Positions 47,198-61,463 of a stretch of DNA of 64,000 bases are shown piece after piece. A program made the translations under genes and the position numbers. Under the pieces are notes generated by a model. It worked only from the letters and a program-made list of their open reading frames with translations, was not told the origin of the DNA and searched no databases. This DNA is from Capsulimonadales bacterium (GTDB taxonomy: Bacteria > Armatimonadota > Armatimonadia > Armatimonadales > Armatimonadaceae), in NCBI GenBank assembly GCA_033762295.1, contig JANRLW010000064.1, forward strand, positions 96,001 to 160,000. The letters are read 5' to 3'. Numbering within the stretch: the first letter of the stretch is position 1; the number at the start of each line of letters is the position of its first letter.

Positions 47198-47258
47198 CTG
47201 CCCGGAGGAACAAAGCGAAACGATGTTTGCTTTTGAAGGCCGTTTTTTCGGGAGGAAC

Positions 47259-47822
47259 ATGACGGAGCGAGAACGGTTTGCCCAGATCGCCAAGCAGTGC
47301 GAGGCGGCGTTGATGCGCGCGGCGCTGCGTCTTTGTCGTGGCGGCAATGACTGTGCTCAGGAACTGGTACAGGAGGCGCTGGTCAGAGGATACGAGGCGT
47401 TTCGCGCCGGTAAGTTCCGCGAAGGGTTCAGTCCTTCCGCCTGGCTGACGCGGATCCTGACCAACAATTTCATCAACGAATATCGCCGGAAGCAAAAGTG
47501 GGACGCCGGGGTCGATGTCGACACCCTGACCGCGGGTGGCGAGGTGGGACCGGAAAGTACCCGCGCCCGCGCCTCCGAGGTGCCCGAATCGGCGCTCCTG
47601 GAGGGGGAGTTTGACGAACCGCTCGAAAAGGCGCTCAACGCGTTGCCCGAAGGTTTGCGAATCGTGGTGCTCCTGGTCGACGTCGAGGAACGCTCCTATC
47701 AGGAAGCCGCCGAACTGTTAAAAATTCCGGTCGGTACGGTCCGTTCGCGGTTGTCACGCGCCCGGTACGCTTTACAGGATATGCTGAAGGAATATGCGCG
47801 AAACCGAAGGATCATCTCATGA
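47259..47822 (+). CDS. ECF RNA polymerase sigma factor
   Basis: RBS GGGAGG; AQELVQEA, AWLTRILTNNFINEYRR, LVDVEERSYQEAAELLKIPVGTVRSRLSRAR. Confidence 0.93.
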   Translation: MTERERFAQIAKQCEAALMRAALRLCRGGNDCAQELVQEALVRGYEAFRAGKFREGFSPSAWLTRILTNNFINEYRRKQKWDAGVDVDTLTAGGEVGPESTRARASEVPESALLEGEFDEPLEKALNALPEGLRIVVLLVDVEERSYQEAAELLKIPVGTVRSRLSRARYALQDMLKEYARNRRIIS

Positions 47823-48148
47823 AAAACTGGTTATATCAATGGCTCGATTCTCTCTTTCCGCATACCAAGGACAGTGAAACGCCCTGCCCGCACATGAAGG
47901 GCGTGTTGAGCGAACTCTCGGATGACACCGCTTCCGGCCCGAAACGCTGGTACGCGGTGCAGCATGTGGCCGGATGTCCCGGTTGTTCGCGGACACTCGA
48001 ACGATTGCGCTTGCTGCGGCAGCGTCTGCAGGGATTGAACCGGGAAGCGGAACCGTCCGAGAAGGAAAAGGTGATGCCCCTGTCCCCGGAACGTCGTGCC
48101 GCCGTCGAGGCAGCCTGGGCAAAACTGGATGAAACCTCCCCGAGATAG
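47819..48148 (+). CDS. Zinc-finger (ZAS, HxxxCxxC) anti-sigma factor, soluble
   Basis: C..M...LS...D...QHVAGCPGC; ATGA overlap with the sigma gene; no TM segment. Confidence 0.82.
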   Translation: MKNWLYQWLDSLFPHTKDSETPCPHMKGVLSELSDDTASGPKRWYAVQHVAGCPGCSRTLERLRLLRQRLQGLNREAEPSEKEKVMPLSPERRAAVEAAWAKLDETSPR

Positions 48149-48312: not shown

Positions 48313-50103
48313 ATGACGGGAAATCGGCTCAAAGGGCGCCTGCCAAAGATCGGCATCCGTCCGACCATCGACGGTCGCTACGGCGGCGTGCGCGAATCGC
48401 TCGAAGATATCACAATGAATATGGCACGGGCGACCGCGCAGCTGCTGATCGATAACCTGCAGCATGCCTGCGGCCTTCCGGTGGAGGTCGTCCTGGCGGA
48501 CACCTGTATCGGCGGCGCGGCGGAGGCGGCGGAGTGCGCCGAGAAGTTCGCGCGCGAAGGCGTCGGTGTCCACATCACCGTGACCCCGTGCTGGTGCTAC
48601 GGTTCCGAGACGATGGCGCTCGAACCCGACCTGCCGACGGCGGTCTGGGGATTCAACGGGACCGAACGCCCCGGAGCGGTCTACCTGGCCGCCGTCCTTG
48701 CCGGACACAATCAGAAAGGGCTGCCGGCATTCGGAATCTACGGTCGGGACGTGCAGGACGCCGGGGACGCCAATATTCCGGCCGATGTCGCGGCAAAGCT
48801 TCTTCAGTTTGCCCGCGCCGGTCTGGCCGTGGCGACCATGCGCGGGACCTCCTATCTGGCGATGGGCGGCGTCTCCATGGGAATCGCCGGGTCCGTCGTC
48901 GATCCGACCTTCTTTGAAACCTTTCTCGGAATGCGCTCCGAAACCATCGACATGACGGAGTTCATCCGGCGGATGGAGCGCGGCATCTACGATCGGGACG
49001 AGTACGAACGCGCTCTGGCCTGGGTAAGGACGAACTGCCGCGAAGGCAAGGATTGGAACACCGAGGACAAAAAACGTTCGCGCGAGCAGCTGGATCGAGA
49101 GTGGGAACAGTGCGTCCGAATGGCTCTGATCGCTCGTGACCTGATGATCGGAAACCCGAAACTGGCCGAGATGGGCTTTGTCGAGGAGTCGCGGGGGCAT
49201 AATGCCCTGGCGAGCGGCTTCCAGGGACAGCGGCAATGGACTGATCACTTCCCGAACGGCGATTTTTTGGAAGCCATCCTGACCTCCTCGTTCGACTGGA
49301 ACGGCATCCGGCAGCCGTATATGGTCGCGACGGAAAACGATGCTCTCAACGGTGCGTCCATGCTCTTCGGACACCTGCTCACCGGCGGAACCGCCCAGCT
49401 GTTCGCCGACGTTCGAACGTACTGGTCACCGGAAGCCGTCCGGCGGGTCACCGGACATGAACTCACGGAAAGGGCGGCGGGCGGCATCCTCCACCTGATC
49501 AACTCCGGCCCGGCGGCGCTCGATTGGACCGGCGAACAGACCGAGGACGGAAAACCGGCGCTCAAGCCGTTCAACCGGATCACCGAAGCCGAGGCGCAGG
49601 CGTGCCTCGACGCGACCCGCTGGTGTCCGTCGATGTCCGAGTATTTCCCCGGTGGCGGCTGGTCCACCGACTTCACGACCCGTGGCGGGATGCCCGTGAC
49701 CATGTTCCGGATCAATCTCGTCAAGGGACTGGGGCCGGTTCTCCAGATTGCCGAGGGCTACACCGTCGATCTGCCGGAAGAGGTGCATCGCGCCCTGGAC
49801 GAGCGGACCAACCCGACCTGGCCGACCACCTGGTTCGTGCCGAATGTCACCGGGCAGGGCGCGTTTACCGATGCCTACACGGTCATGCTTCACTGGGGCG
49901 CGAACCACGGCGCGATCTCCTACGGCCATATCGGTGGCGATCTCATCACTCTGGCCTCCATGCTGCGGATTCCCGTCGATATGCACAACGTCCCGACCGA
50001 ACGGGTCTTCCGACCGTCCGCCTGGATGCGGTTCGGTAGCGGAATGGACGAAACGGGCGCCGATTACCGGGCCTGCGCCGTCTACGGACCGCTGTACGGC
50101 TGA
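48313..50103 (+). CDS. fucI: L-fucose isomerase
   Basis: [78 protein letters not shown]. Confidence 0.96.
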
Positions 50104-50179
50104 ATACGACCGGGGACCGATCTTTTCTCGAACGGAGGCGGGGGAACGGTTCCCGGAAGGTGTGCAATATACCCCCGGG

Positions 50180-50188
50180 TGGTATAAT
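50180..50188 (+). promoter_or_regulatory. Extended -10 promoter (TGnTATAAT), probably driving a leaderless transcript
   Basis: TGGTATAAT at 50180-50188, GTG start 6 nt later, no SD in between. Confidence 0.6.
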
Positions 50189-50194
50189 GCCTCC

Positions 50195-50683
50195 GTGACA
50201 CAGCGTGGATTCCGGTTCCGGCTCCCGATCGCGGTGATTCTGGCGGCTTTCCTTATCGGATCGCTACCATTGCCGCAAGTGCGGGCAATCTATCGCCCGC
50301 ACCGGCCCGGTGCGACGACCGTTGGGACGACCGTTGCGACGACCGTTGCGACTCCCAATTCGGCCCGGTGCGCGATGAAGGCGGCCGGGAAGCCGTGCTG
50401 CTGTCCGTCGGCGCTCGCCGGGCCGACCGGGGACACCCCTTCCGAGGAGGTGGCATGTCCTTGCGCCCTGGGCTCCGGCGAACCCCTGCCACCCGACCCG
50501 ACGACCTCCGTTCCGGTGTCTCCTTCCCCGGCGGACTCTCCGACGCGAAGTCACATCTGCACGCCGGCGAATCGGGGGCAGGAGCCTCCGCTTTCGCCGG
50601 CGACCAACTTCGACCCCGTCCCCTTCCGATCCGGAGAGCGTCCGCCCGACGCCGGACGCGCCCCGCCTTCGCCTGACGCGTAA
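50195..50683 (+). CDS. Cys-rich putative leader/arrest peptide with C-terminal RAPP motif (DUF2946/CruR/CutF-like architecture)
   Basis: 3' part of ORF 49748-50683 from GTG 50195: hydrophobic N-terminus, CAM..PCCCP..CPC, Pro-rich tail, GRAPPSPDA*. Confidence 0.7.
   Translation: MTQRGFRFRLPIAVILAAFLIGSLPLPQVRAIYRPHRPGATTVGTTVATTVATPNSARCAMKAAGKPCCCPSALAGPTGDTPSEEVACPCALGSGEPLPPDPTTSVPVSPSPADSPTRSHICTPANRGQEPPLSPATNFDPVPFRSGERPPDAGRAPPSPDA
50314..50352 (+). repeat. 12-bp tandem repeat x3 (GACGACCGTTGS) encoding TTV(G/A)
   Basis: gacgaccgttgg gacgaccgttgc gacgaccgttgc gac. Confidence 0.8.
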
Positions 50684-50742
50684 CGTTGTCTCGGCGGCCT
50701 GTTTTCGCGCCGCCACCGTGTCCACGCTCAGGAGAGGTTTCC

Positions 50743-51918
50743 ATGCTACGTTCCTTTTGGGTTGCCTTGCTCGGCATCGCCCTTCTTTCGTTGCCATCGC
50801 CCGTCCGCGCGCAGGGGAAAAACCCTGTCGAATCGTCAGGACGATATCGTGTCGAACTGCGACTGCCTCCGGCCGGCGTCTATGCCGGAGAGGAGATCGA
50901 TATCGAATTTCGTGTGACCGATACCGCAAAAGCCGACCCGGTTCTCGGTGCGCCCGGAGTCATCCGCGCGCGGATCAAAGCGGCGGTGACCATGCCCTCC
51001 ATGGCCGGGATGCCGGCGATCGTTCCGAAGATCCATTCCGAAGGGGTGCCCGGTGACTACGGTCTGGTCGCGACCTATCCCCACGGCGGGGAGTACCGGA
51101 TCGCCCTCAGTATCACGCCGCCCGGGTCCGAAAGTCCGTTCACGGTGGCGTTCCTCATTGATGTCGGGGATGCGGACGCGCGGCCGAAAGGGCGACCTGT
51201 GAACGCTCCGTACCGCCTCGACGTCAGGTCCAAACCCGAAAAGCCGACCGGGCAGCAGCCGGTCGATCTCGCTCTGCGGGTCCTCGAACGCGCCACAGGC
51301 AGGCCGGTTACCGCGTTCGAGATCGTCCATGAGCAGCCGATGCACCTGATCGTGGTTCGTGAAGACCTCGGGGCGTTCTTCCATGAGCACCCGACACGGA
51401 ACGAGGACGGAACGTTCACCCATCGCTTCACCTTCCCGTCCGGCGGGTTGTGGCGGGTGTTCGGGGATGTCGCGCCGGTCGGCGCGGGCAGTCAGGTACT
51501 GGCAACGACCATCAAGGTCAACGGACCGGTGCCGCCCAGAGCGCCGCTGACGACCGTCCGCGGACCGGTCACCGATCGGGAACTGACACTGACCTTTCCG
51601 ACGGATCGCCTGCCGGAACGCACGCTGTTTCCCTGGACCTTCGACCTGAAGGACTCGGCCGGGATGCCGATCACCGATCTTCAGCCGTGGCTCGGCGCGC
51701 CCGCCCACCTTATTCTGATTTCCGGGGATGGCGAAACGTTCGTCCATTCCCACCCGGATGAGTCCGACCCGAAGAACGGAACCAACGGCAAACTGACCTT
51801 TCTCGTCCGGTTCCCCCGATCGGGCATCTTCAAGGGGTGGCTCCAGTGCCAGCGGGCGAACGAGATCCGGACGCTGCCCTTTGTCGTGCGGGTGCAGGGG
51901 AAGGCGGCGAGCCGATGA
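50743..51918 (+). CDS. Secreted putative heavy-metal (copper)-binding protein: YtkA/FixH-like domain plus two HxHP domains
   Basis: RBS AGGAGAGG; signal peptide; TMPSMAGM; VHEQPMHLIVVREDL..FFHEHP; LQPWLGAPAHLILI.....FVHSHP. Confidence 0.75.
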   Translation: MLRSFWVALLGIALLSLPSPVRAQGKNPVESSGRYRVELRLPPAGVYAGEEIDIEFRVTDTAKADPVLGAPGVIRARIKAAVTMPSMAGMPAIVPKIHSEGVPGDYGLVATYPHGGEYRIALSITPPGSESPFTVAFLIDVGDADARPKGRPVNAPYRLDVRSKPEKPTGQQPVDLALRVLERATGRPVTAFEIVHEQPMHLIVVREDLGAFFHEHPTRNEDGTFTHRFTFPSGGLWRVFGDVAPVGAGSQVLATTIKVNGPVPPRAPLTTVRGPVTDRELTLTFPTDRLPERTLFPWTFDLKDSAGMPITDLQPWLGAPAHLILISGDGETFVHSHPDESDPKNGTNGKLTFLVRFPRSGIFKGWLQCQRANEIRTLPFVVRVQGKAASR

Positions 51919-53831
51919 GCGATTTTCGTTGCCGCTACCTGCCGTTCGTCGTGCTTCCGTGGGTGCTTCTGATTGCGCTGCTCGGAGGACCGAGCTCGGC
52001 GTCGGCGGCGCATCCGCCGAAGAAGGGCGTGAAACGTCCTCCCTCAAAAGCGGCCGCGCAGATCCGCGCGGCCGGACAGCGGATCGACGCGGCGAAAAAG
52101 CGATTGCGTGCGGAGGGGAAGTACGGCTGCTGTCTCAAACCGGCAGCCGGTCGGACGGTCGGGGGCTGTGAGCATTGTCTGAAAACCGCGGGGGAATGCC
52201 GCTGTGCCGCGAACCTTCGGGCGGGCAAAGGGGTGTGCGGACAGTGCGTCGCCGGGTGGAAAGCCGGACAGGGGGCCATCGCCGGCATCGACCGGGACCG
52301 GGTCCGATGGTCGCCGTCCGAGCCGTCCGAGTCGAAAAACGCGGCGACCGAAGTACCCGAACTGATCGAGGCCCGCGAACTCCTGACCATGGCGAAACGA
52401 ACGATGGTCGCCGAGGGACGTTACGTCTGCTGTATCGGGGACGGCGGCTGTGACGAATGCGCCCTGGAGGGGGACTGCCCGTGCGGCATCGAACTCAACG
52501 AAGGCGCGGAAGGGCAGGGGGTCTGCGGTTCCTGCTACGACGGCTGGCATGCCGGTCACGGCAGCTTCGAAGGGGTGGAGATTGCGTCGGTACGACTCAA
52601 CGTCCAGCCGGGCCACGGAAGCGGGGACGACCGGGACGTGTTCGGAATGTTCGGTGACTGGCGGATGAACCGCGAGGGGTCGGGAACCGCCTGGCTGCCG
52701 GACTCCTCGCCCCTGTACGCGCAAATGACCCGCTGGGGCGACTTCCGGACCATGCTCCACGGGTACGGCTACGGCGTTTACACCGATCAGAAAGCCCGGG
52801 GAAACCGGCGCGGCGACGATGGGACGTTCGTTGCTTCCCAGATCATGGGAATGGCCTGGCAGCGCAAAGGGAATGCGATCTTTGGTGGGCGGATGATGCT
52901 TTCGGCCGATCCGTGGACGATCGGAGATTCGGGCTATCCTCTCCTCTTTCAGACGGGGGAGACGGCGAACGGCCGGCCACTGGTCGACCGCCAGCATCCG
53001 CATGACCTGTTTATGGAACTGGCCGCCGCCTATACGCAAAGGCTGACACCGAACGGTGGCGCGTTATCGCTATATCTGGCTCCGGTGGGCGAGCCGGCCA
53101 TCGGTCCGCCCGCCTTCGCCCACCGACCGTCCGCGTTCGACAACCCCGAAGCCCCGATTTCGCATCACTGGTTCGACTCCACCCATATTACGTACGGCGT
53201 GGCGACGGTCGGACTGGCGAATCGCGCCGTCAAACTGGAGGGAAGCCTGTTCACCGGGCGCGAACCGGACGAGAACCGGGAACGGTGGGACCGTTTCCGC
53301 TGGGACTCGACGTCCGTTCGCCTGGCGGCGAACCCGACCCGCGATCTGGCGTTTCAGATCAGCCAGGCGTGGCTCCGACGACCGGAAGCCCTGGAACCGG
53401 ACACCGATCAGCGGCGATACACCGCCTCCGTCCTCTACAACCGGCCGCTGGCCGAGGGGCGCGCCAATCTTCAATCCTCCCTGATGTGGGCGCGTAATCG
53501 GAAGTATGCGCCGGACCATGCCCCGGCGAACAGCGATGCGCTTCTGTTCGAGACCGCCTTTCTCGCTCCGGAAGGGACTCTGTTCGGAAGGTGGGAACGA
53601 ACGGACAAGGACGAACTCTTTCCGGGAATGGAGGACCACCGCGCTTTCCGGGTCAACAAGTTCACTCTGGGAGGCGTTCATAACCTTGCCGCAACGCGCG
53701 GAGCGGAACTGGGTATCGGAGGCAGCGTGTCCGCTTTCTCGATTCCGGCCGGGTTAAAGCCGGACTACGGTTCCTCACCGCTGACGTTCAACCTTTTCCT
53801 GCGGCTCCGGTCGGCGCGGATGATGCACTGA
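51915..53831 (+). CDS. Duplicated 8-Cys domain fused to a putative outer-membrane beta-barrel
   Basis: ATGA overlap; signal peptide; two CC/CxxC/CxC/CxxC repeats; REGSGTAWLPDS, QTGETA...DRQHPHDLFMELA, GEPAIGPPAF.HRPSA, HHWFDSTHITYGV, GREPDENR; alternating beta-strand C-terminus. Confidence 0.75.
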   Translation: MSDFRCRYLPFVVLPWVLLIALLGGPSSASAAHPPKKGVKRPPSKAAAQIRAAGQRIDAAKKRLRAEGKYGCCLKPAAGRTVGGCEHCLKTAGECRCAANLRAGKGVCGQCVAGWKAGQGAIAGIDRDRVRWSPSEPSESKNAATEVPELIEARELLTMAKRTMVAEGRYVCCIGDGGCDECALEGDCPCGIELNEGAEGQGVCGSCYDGWHAGHGSFEGVEIASVRLNVQPGHGSGDDRDVFGMFGDWRMNREGSGTAWLPDSSPLYAQMTRWGDFRTMLHGYGYGVYTDQKARGNRRGDDGTFVASQIMGMAWQRKGNAIFGGRMMLSADPWTIGDSGYPLLFQTGETANGRPLVDRQHPHDLFMELAAAYTQRLTPNGGALSLYLAPVGEPAIGPPAFAHRPSAFDNPEAPISHHWFDSTHITYGVATVGLANRAVKLEGSLFTGREPDENRERWDRFRWDSTSVRLAANPTRDLAFQISQAWLRRPEALEPDTDQRRYTASVLYNRPLAEGRANLQSSLMWARNRKYAPDHAPANSDALLFETAFLAPEGTLFGRWERTDKDELFPGMEDHRAFRVNKFTLGGVHNLAATRGAELGIGGSVSAFSIPAGLKPDYGSSPLTFNLFLRLRSARMMH

Positions 53832-60704: not shown

Positions 60705-61463
60705 ATGTTTTCTTTTTCTCGTCTTGTCGGCATCACTCTGGCGATCGTTACCGGAATGGCGCTGTCATCGCCTGTCTTTGCGCAGACCACCGTGGGGGGT
60801 CTGACCATTCTGGCTCCGGGGTCCGTCGTGGAAGGGCGTACCATCGGGGAATGGACCACGGAATGGTGGCAATGGGCATTTTCGCAATCTACTCCCAACG
60901 ATGCGTTCTCGGATACGACCGGAGCCAATGCGGGAGTGAACCAATCCGGGCCGGTCTGGTTTGTCGCCGGAACCCTGGGTACGCTGGAAACGCGGACGCT
61001 TTTCGTTCCGACCGATCGGTATTTGTTGATTCCGTTGATTAATGTGGAGAACTCCGACCTGGAAATTCCGGGTGCCTCGGAAGCGGACCTTCGCCAGGCA
61101 AGTATTGATACGATGAATCTGGTCGATTCCCTGAACCTCGCGATTAATGGAACCACGGTCACCAACCTCAACAGCTACCGTGAATTGTCACCGGCCTTCA
61201 GCTTTTCCTCCGCCGCCAACAATCCGTTCGGTGTGACGGCCGGTGTCGCCAATACGGCGGTCGCGGATGGTTTCTGGGTAATGCTCGCGCCGATCGGAAC
61301 GGGAATCCATACGGTGACCTTCGGAGGGGGCGTCAGTTCCTTCGGATTTTCCACCGGGGTTCAGGCGACCCTGGTCGCCGCCCCCGAACCGGCACCGCTC
61401 GGTCTGCTTCTTGCAGTGATTGGCGGAATGGGTATCGTCGTCAGGAAACGACGGATCGGATAA
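60705..61463 (+). CDS. PEP-CTERM sorting domain protein
   Basis: RBS AAGGAAGG; signal peptide; WWQWA..D.TG...NQSGPVWFVAGT core; C-terminal APEPAPLGLLLAVIGGMGIVVRKRR. Confidence 0.9.
   Translation: MFSFSRLVGITLAIVTGMALSSPVFAQTTVGGLTILAPGSVVEGRTIGEWTTEWWQWAFSQSTPNDAFSDTTGANAGVNQSGPVWFVAGTLGTLETRTLFVPTDRYLLIPLINVENSDLEIPGASEADLRQASIDTMNLVDSLNLAINGTTVTNLNSYRELSPAFSFSSAANNPFGVTAGVANTAVADGFWVMLAPIGTGIHTVTFGGGVSSFGFSTGVQATLVAAPEPAPLGLLLAVIGGMGIVVRKRRIG

Follow-up and report, generated by a model that had tools for sequence, protein, structure and literature searches.

In the analysed stretch of Capsulimonadales bacterium DNA (64,000 nucleotides of contig JANRLW010000064.1, hereinafter the window, with positions counted from its first letter), a single open frame at 51915-53831 on the forward strand encodes a 638-aa protein in which two eight-cysteine modules are fused to a predicted outer-membrane porin barrel. 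The operator-like site, the leader open reading frame (ORF), the gene for an exported YtkA-domain protein and the fusion gene form one conserved unit in sequence (Table 1), and this system is very probably involved in copper handling. As for the fusion protein itself, we slightly favor the reading that it is a copper-induced periplasmic trap joined to an outer-membrane channel, the modules binding Cu(I) and the pore passing copper out. Taken separately, an outward or detoxifying direction is probable, and a role of the module cysteines as metal ligands is nearly as probable.

The ATG of the fusion gene overlaps the stop codon of the upstream gene. Apart from one cysteine inside the signal peptide, the seventeenth of the protein, all cysteines belong to two sets of eight (residues 72, 73, 85, 88, 95, 97, 108, 111 and 172, 173, 179, 182, 188, 190, 204, 207), with cores at 52128-52247 and 52428-52535. 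The original prediction, made without database searches, had claimed two homologous units here; the repeats are indeed homologous (35% identity over 88 columns, E = 7e-16), each being, with its leading helix and tail, about 85 rather than 60 aa long. A six-frame search of the 5.16-Mb genome finds the eight-cysteine pattern nowhere but in these two units, and the remainder of the protein after them is a 390-aa beta-rich domain. The named relatives nearest to the fusion protein are labelled Armatimonadaceae, Armatimonas and Acidobacteria.

A profile of the module, suggested by the original prediction as a way to stand-alone homologues and built here from 35 units, returned 338 clusters at 50% identity. 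For the most part these are short exported proteins that stand alone, 130 of the 150 listed matches being shorter than 250 aa. Conservation of the cysteines had been set beforehand as a test: all eight are retained in 147 of these 150 matches, and each of the three exceptions has one cysteine read as tryptophan. The commonest spacing among them is CC-x4-C-x2-C-x6-C-x-C-x10-C-x2-C. The named carriers include Armatimonadota, Acidobacteriota, Bacteroidota, Ignavibacteria, Desulfobacterales, Clostridiales and Halanaerobiaceae. A hydrophobic N-terminal stretch is present in 163 of 188 module proteins, a lipobox-like motif in 32 and a Tat-like motif in one. Many stand-alone proteins bear Met- or His-rich tails, and in the 36 of 146 new matches scanned for fused domains, picked among the longer ones, we observed HMBD (n = 11), HMA (n = 4) and cytochrome c (n = 2). 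Judging by these sequences, the 8-Cys unit is a real, unnamed domain family. Among the module-porin fusions (n = 57), 42 carry two units and 15 carry one. A tree was built from 104 sampled units, comprising 22 each of the 42 first and 42 second repeats, the 15 single units and 45 small proteins (75 columns, rough support). The second repeats and the single units form one supported group in it, which suggests that one-unit fusions lost repeat 1.

The module model (pLDDT 91) consists of a long helix and three short helices. Fold searches of the PDB with this model gave no match (best Z 2.5 among 48,161 chains; best Foldseek E 7.7), which is a lack in the searched libraries and not proof of a new fold; the four-helix-bundle Csp was listed in neither search. 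Sequence searches of Pfam, NCBIfam and the PDB with the whole protein and with alignments of the module and of the barrel yielded nothing significant, a plasmid search for the module gave no match, and the ESM Atlas returned unnamed clusters only. One of these, a 146-aa cluster of 56% archaeal membership (commonest Nanobdellota) scoring 0.76 to the module, is only a lead to remote relatives. As the module is helical and exported, it is not a metallothionein, and the "metallothionein-like" label it had been given does not hold: none of the 35 module sequences matches the metallothionein family at E<=1 or any other Pfam family, and the unit is a folded one with conserved Tyr and Trp, four helices instead of an unstructured chain and, in most members, the N-terminus of an exported rather than cytoplasmic protein. 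Binding of c-type heme was rejected as well, CxxCH being absent from the module.

The C-terminal part belongs to an unnamed family that is widespread, as the original prediction stated. At least 7,979 of the 7,998 proteins scored match residues 240-638 at E<=1e-10, and the barrel is present in 55 of 301 genomes of the host phylum. No Pfam or NCBIfam family matches the whole protein at E<=0.1, so there is no match to the CopB profile, and no PDB chain matches the barrel by sequence. The AlphaFold2 model built on 100 aligned rows (mean pLDDT 88) has 16 long strands between residues 277 and 633 and resembles OprP, Omp38, Omp32 and PorB (Z 22-23); over the 16-stranded porins, Z ranges from 22.2 to 23.2 with rmsd of 3.4-5.2 A over 286-315 residues, and Foldseek E values go down to 2.5e-10. 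The beta-barrel is thus predicted with high confidence, and the prediction agrees with the outer-membrane channel proposed earlier; the genome has Omp85 genes, hence an outer membrane is present. TonB-dependent copper transporters of the OprC/NosA type are 22-stranded barrels with a plug; this assignment was rejected, since the model has 16 strands and OprC ranks only 48th (Z 10.0), while the "TonB-dependent receptor" labels of two Atlas clusters are automatic.

Five methionines (280, 311, 313, 328 and 367) are conserved in 91-100 of the 100 aligned rows, and six histidines (361, 363, 403, 417, 418 and 424) in 99-100; the motifs HPHD, HRPS and HHWFDSTH pointed out earlier are present, and their histidines are among those kept in 99-100% of the 100 aligned relatives. 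Judging by strand alternation in the model, the methionines on strands 1-3 would face the lumen. The His403-424 cluster is placed by the model in the loop between strands 5 and 6, and in general porins this loop forms the constriction. Among the best relatives listed, the N-terminal extension of the barrel is a cupredoxin in six rows, HMBD in five, a redoxin in one and a Met/His tail in many, and YtkA-like and YHS-like domains, as read from the sequences, also precede barrels of the host phylum. Since the barrel N-terminus swaps with cupredoxin, HMBD and Met/His tails, the module fills a slot otherwise occupied by copper-binding domains. With these swaps, the copper-gene neighbors and the CsoR-type operator, the copper link that the original prediction had named for this family is strong.

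The matrix used to score the operator was derived solely from five sites adjacent to csoR/copA genes. The window palindrome is the second-best site of the genome (28.1 bits), the genome's own three training sites scoring 26.5-29.9, the next non-training site 18.6, and the 99.9th percentile of random 500-mers 12.1. It also conforms to the published CsoR operator, TAC-X9-GTA with G/C tracts at the promoter (PMC3902906). The bare pattern ATACC-N7-GGTAT was not enriched in count over other spacer lengths, so the case for the operator rests on matrix rank and position; a promoter scan did not find a full sigma-70 site. The CsoR of this genome has the Cys-His-Cys set, and its gene precedes that of a CopA-type ATPase. 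An operator-like site is found ahead of the leader in five of 12 related Armatimonadota loci. In the fetched 11-13 kb, CsoR and a P-type ATPase with an HMA domain are encoded in 5/12 of these loci, a multicopper oxidase in 1/12 and YHS genes in 3/12.

By analogy, the leader is likely an arrest peptide of the CutF/CruR type. An equivalent RAPP- or RGPP-ended cysteine-bearing ORF is present in all 12 related loci, and in 13 of 13 leaders a CxC or CC lies 60-71 residues before RAPP; a Pfam search gave no match, DUF2946 included. In CutF, copper-induced pausing opens a stem over the next ribosome site (PMC9973294). The corresponding stem predicted in the window was equalled in stability by 12 of 500 shuffles, the fold of the whole region being no better than shuffles (z from -0.7 to 0.6). 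Over all loci, the stem beat nearly all shuffles in six of the eight scorable ones and failed to do so in two, five loci having no site by the search pattern. Two acidobacterial-type loci (L135:3714-3944 and L141:3645-3884) have a shorter Cys/His leader-like ORF without RAPP before the YtkA gene.

The YtkA-domain protein is likely a periplasmic copper chaperone. Its gene matches Pfam in 11 of the 12 related loci, and the twelfth is called short yet aligns; a YtkA-type gene (41% identical) also stands directly upstream in 8/8 acidobacterial-type metagenome loci examined, out of 15. Complex prediction for the YtkA and fusion proteins scored 0.55 against 0.00 for the best control, with contacts agreeing to at least 88% and a partner pLDDT of at least 86. 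In the benchmark the mark was reached by 116 of 157 solved and two of 215 mismatched pairs, the range up to 0.60 containing only 18 of the 157 solved pairs and both mismatches; a pass in this low range is mostly false unless the pairing was already likely, and the docking is thus weakly predicted.

Table 1. The copper-linked operon in the window and the parts of the fusion protein.
Feature	Position	Strand	Basis
CsoR-type operator TATACC-N7-GGTATA, overlapping the TATAAT -10 hexamer (50183-50188)	50168..50188	+	matrix rank and published consensus
Leader ORF, 162 aa: signal-like N-terminus, CCC and CxC, RAPP at 50657-50668	50195..50683	+	
Predicted stem: codons after RAPP pair with the Shine-Dalgarno sequence of the next gene	50666..50738	+	folding against shuffles
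Exported YtkA-domain protein, 391 aa, conserved Met (MPxMxGMP) and His motifs	50743..51918	+	PF13115, E 1.8e-8; alignment of 13
Sec-type signal peptide, His33 likely first mature residue	51915..52013	+	His33 invariant in 13 relatives; AxA-(A)H pattern in 49/57 fusion proteins
8-Cys module repeat 1: helix, CC-x11-C-x2-C-x6-C-x-C-x10-C-x2-C, GW-x2-G-x-G	52053..52310	+	
8-Cys module repeat 2: CC-x5-C-x2-C-x5-C-x-C-x13-C-x2-C; the copy retained in one-module relatives	52356..52598	+	pLDDT 91
Predicted 16-stranded porin-fold barrel; conserved Met on strands 1-3, His in two long loops	52647..53831	+	

The preferred reading suggests the following sequence of events. Cytoplasmic Cu(I) would lift CsoR off the promoter, and periplasmic copper, if the leader acts as CutF does, would stall the ribosome at RAPP, so that the stem over the next Shine-Dalgarno sequence opens. 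The barrel is predicted to reside in the outer membrane with the N-terminal modules in the periplasm. The YtkA protein would gather periplasmic copper, dock on the fusion protein, as complex prediction weakly suggests, and deliver its copper there. Attached to the barrel on its periplasmic side, the modules would buffer Cu(I) in thiolate clusters next to the pore mouth. Met280, 311, 313 and 328 together with His361, 363, 403, 417, 418 and 424 may relay copper through the pore. A bolder version, possible but on balance doubtful, would make the module a new fold that, in the oxidising periplasm, keeps several Cu(I) ions in a thiolate cluster and can release them, a third type of bacterial copper store next to metallothioneins and Csp proteins. 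The 16-strand family would then be a widespread copper-selective porin fed by interchangeable periplasmic copper domains and docked YtkA, with expression controlled from the cytoplasm by CsoR and from the periplasm by a RAPP leader.

Several observations weigh against copper-induced export by the fusion protein, those that favor particular alternatives being given with the latter. The CsoR-like site is absent from seven of the 12 related loci and from all eight acidobacterial-type loci examined, and two of the five sites found are flanked by divergent genes, and copA or csoR may be their only target. The 12 loci are kin, hence the counts are not independent. The leader lacks a CxxC or CxxxC approximately 45 residues before RAPP. 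Finally, the stand-alone module genes mostly have no copper genes among the neighbors scanned.

The main alternative, which we consider unlikely, is that the eight cysteines form four structural disulfides and the module is a stable scaffold or docking domain, copper being handled by the N-terminal His, the Met-rich linker and the pore. The number of cysteines is even, they are conserved in an all-or-none manner without swaps to His, and the proteins are exported through Sec or as lipoproteins. VKOR is encoded in the host genome and in 26 of 30 module-bearing relatives, and in two genomes its gene lies within about 1.5 kb of a stand-alone module gene; the Met- or His-rich tails of many stand-alone members could be the true ligands. 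On the other hand, CC, CxC and two CxxC at helix starts are the usual layout of metal ligands. Seven genomes in which searches found neither DsbB nor VKOR also carry an intact module, namely four of Armatimonadota (93-98% complete) and three metagenome-assembled genomes (MAGs) of anaerobes with unstated completeness. This favors metal ligation, although MAGs are incomplete, and some DsbA of clostridia works without a partner of the DsbB/VKOR type (PMC12453122).

Still less likely, the channel would import scarce copper for cuproenzymes, with a CruR-like leader, storing modules and hand-over by YtkA to oxidase assembly. RAPP is the CruR motif, and CruR, the model of the RAPP type, heads an uptake operon and turns genes off with copper (PMC9426467). 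Similarly, YtkA/CtaK in Bacillus supports CuA assembly, that is, supply and not disposal (PMC13344008). The genome has a heme-copper oxidase, and porins are passive, the flux following the gradient. Import is opposed by the operator over the -10 box, from which expression would rise with cytoplasmic copper, by the linkage to CopA, CopZ and a multicopper oxidase, and by a CutF-like arrangement, in which the intergenic region is short and a predicted stem covers the Shine-Dalgarno sequence.

Improbable, too, is that a fixed Zn or Fe-S cluster in the module has a structural or redox role, for example Cu(II) reduction at the pore: two module proteins are fused to cytochrome c, one barrel relative has a redoxin domain and stand-alone genes in several loci are near Crp/Fnr regulators, cytochromes, Rieske proteins and thioredoxins, but Fe-S proteins are normally exported through Tat and the near-absence of Tat signals (1/188), with ferredoxin spacing and CxxCH absent and no Pfam match, argues against the Fe-S binding that had also been proposed, so that an exported Fe-S protein was rejected.

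Compared with known systems, the fusion protein with copper passing outward through its pore is best read as functioning like PcoB though unrelated in sequence; it is not PcoB, a TonB-dependent transporter or a metallothionein. PcoB/CopB of Caulobacter and E. coli likewise combine an outer-membrane beta-barrel with a periplasmic N-terminal part, and are linked to copper efflux (PMC12509749). In contrast to the disordered, His/Met-rich region of PcoB, there are two folded Cys modules here, with no profile match, and a multicopper oxidase lies beside just one of the 12 loci. The PcoB barrel has 12 strands, versus 16 predicted here. OprP, Omp32, PorB and OmpF share the 16-stranded fold at 8-14% identity, but a charge ladder takes the place of the conserved Met and His, and the N-terminal domains of the present family are modular. 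The leader resembles CutF of the Rhodobacter cutFOG operon and CruR of Bordetella (DUF2946) as an exported cysteine-bearing upstream ORF with a C-terminal RAPP at the head of an operon of exported proteins (PMC9973294, PMC9426467), and the predicted stem over the next ribosome site would be a further likeness to CutF (PMC9973294). It differs in its cysteines, which form CCC and CxC/CC 60-71 residues before RAPP and not CxxC/CxxxC at 45, in lacking a DUF2946 match and in the addition of a CsoR-type operator. Like the copper storage proteins Csp1/Csp3 and the bacterial metallothioneins SmtA/MymT, the module is Cys-rich, and Cu(I)-thiolate clusters are plausible in it; Csp1 is exported and folded before binding (PMC7558416). 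Here, however, eight cysteines at fixed spacing sit in a small helical knot that is exported by Sec and fused to a pore, and the four-helix bundle is not among the listed matches.

Copper passage across the outer membrane is described as poorly known beyond a few proteobacterial proteins (PMC7558416). With the present data, a large unnamed porin family gains a copper assignment from four kinds of evidence, namely the operator, the leader, the neighbors and the domain swaps. In addition, a small, soluble, unnamed Cys domain without a fold match is defined that can be directly expressed and assayed. If the module binds copper, it would be a new copper-cluster fold, and if disulfide-bonded, still a new domain family. 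A literature search found no description of either the module or the porin family, supplements and most subscription papers being outside its reach; the supplementary neighbor tables of PMC9426467 and PMC9973294 may list the porin family.

Outside this operon, stand-alone module genes are rarely located by copper genes among the neighbors scanned. RND efflux genes are near them in two of 15 Armatimonadota loci, with none clear in the other loci scanned, and genes for extracytoplasmic function (ECF) sigma factors and Crp/Fnr regulators are commoner neighbors than copper genes. An ECF sigma gene, often divergent, lies within approximately 1 kb of the stand-alone 8-Cys gene in eight of the 15 loci (L046, L048, L049, L050, L052, L053, L054, L058), and these sigma factors may target the module or work with it as a sensor in the periplasm. 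Crp/Fnr regulators adjoin such genes in other loci (L045, L051, L055, L057, L074), a DUF2231-cytochrome c gene being present in two cases.

A His directly after the signal-peptidase pattern (52011-52013 in the window) is seen in the fusions (49 of 57), in small proteins with the module (16 of 160) and in barrels that lack it (13 of 93); such an N-terminal His of the mature protein resembles the N-terminal Cu(II) sites of the CopC type. One of the 12 related loci, G040 (L011:1219-1860), has an in-frame TAA just after the last module Cys, with the barrel continuing in frame, and may represent a pseudogene, an assembly error or a natural split. Upstream of the operon, the window encodes an ECF sigma factor and an overlapping zf-HC2-like anti-sigma factor (47223-48148), followed by L-fucose isomerase (48313-50103). 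This pair was set aside as a regulator of the operon, as the isomerase gene intervenes and there is no Cys-rich tail. The end of a fucose isomerase-like gene is also present upstream of the G040 locus. Downstream, an exported protein (60705-61463) has, as read from its sequence, a PEP-CTERM-like sorting signal at the end.

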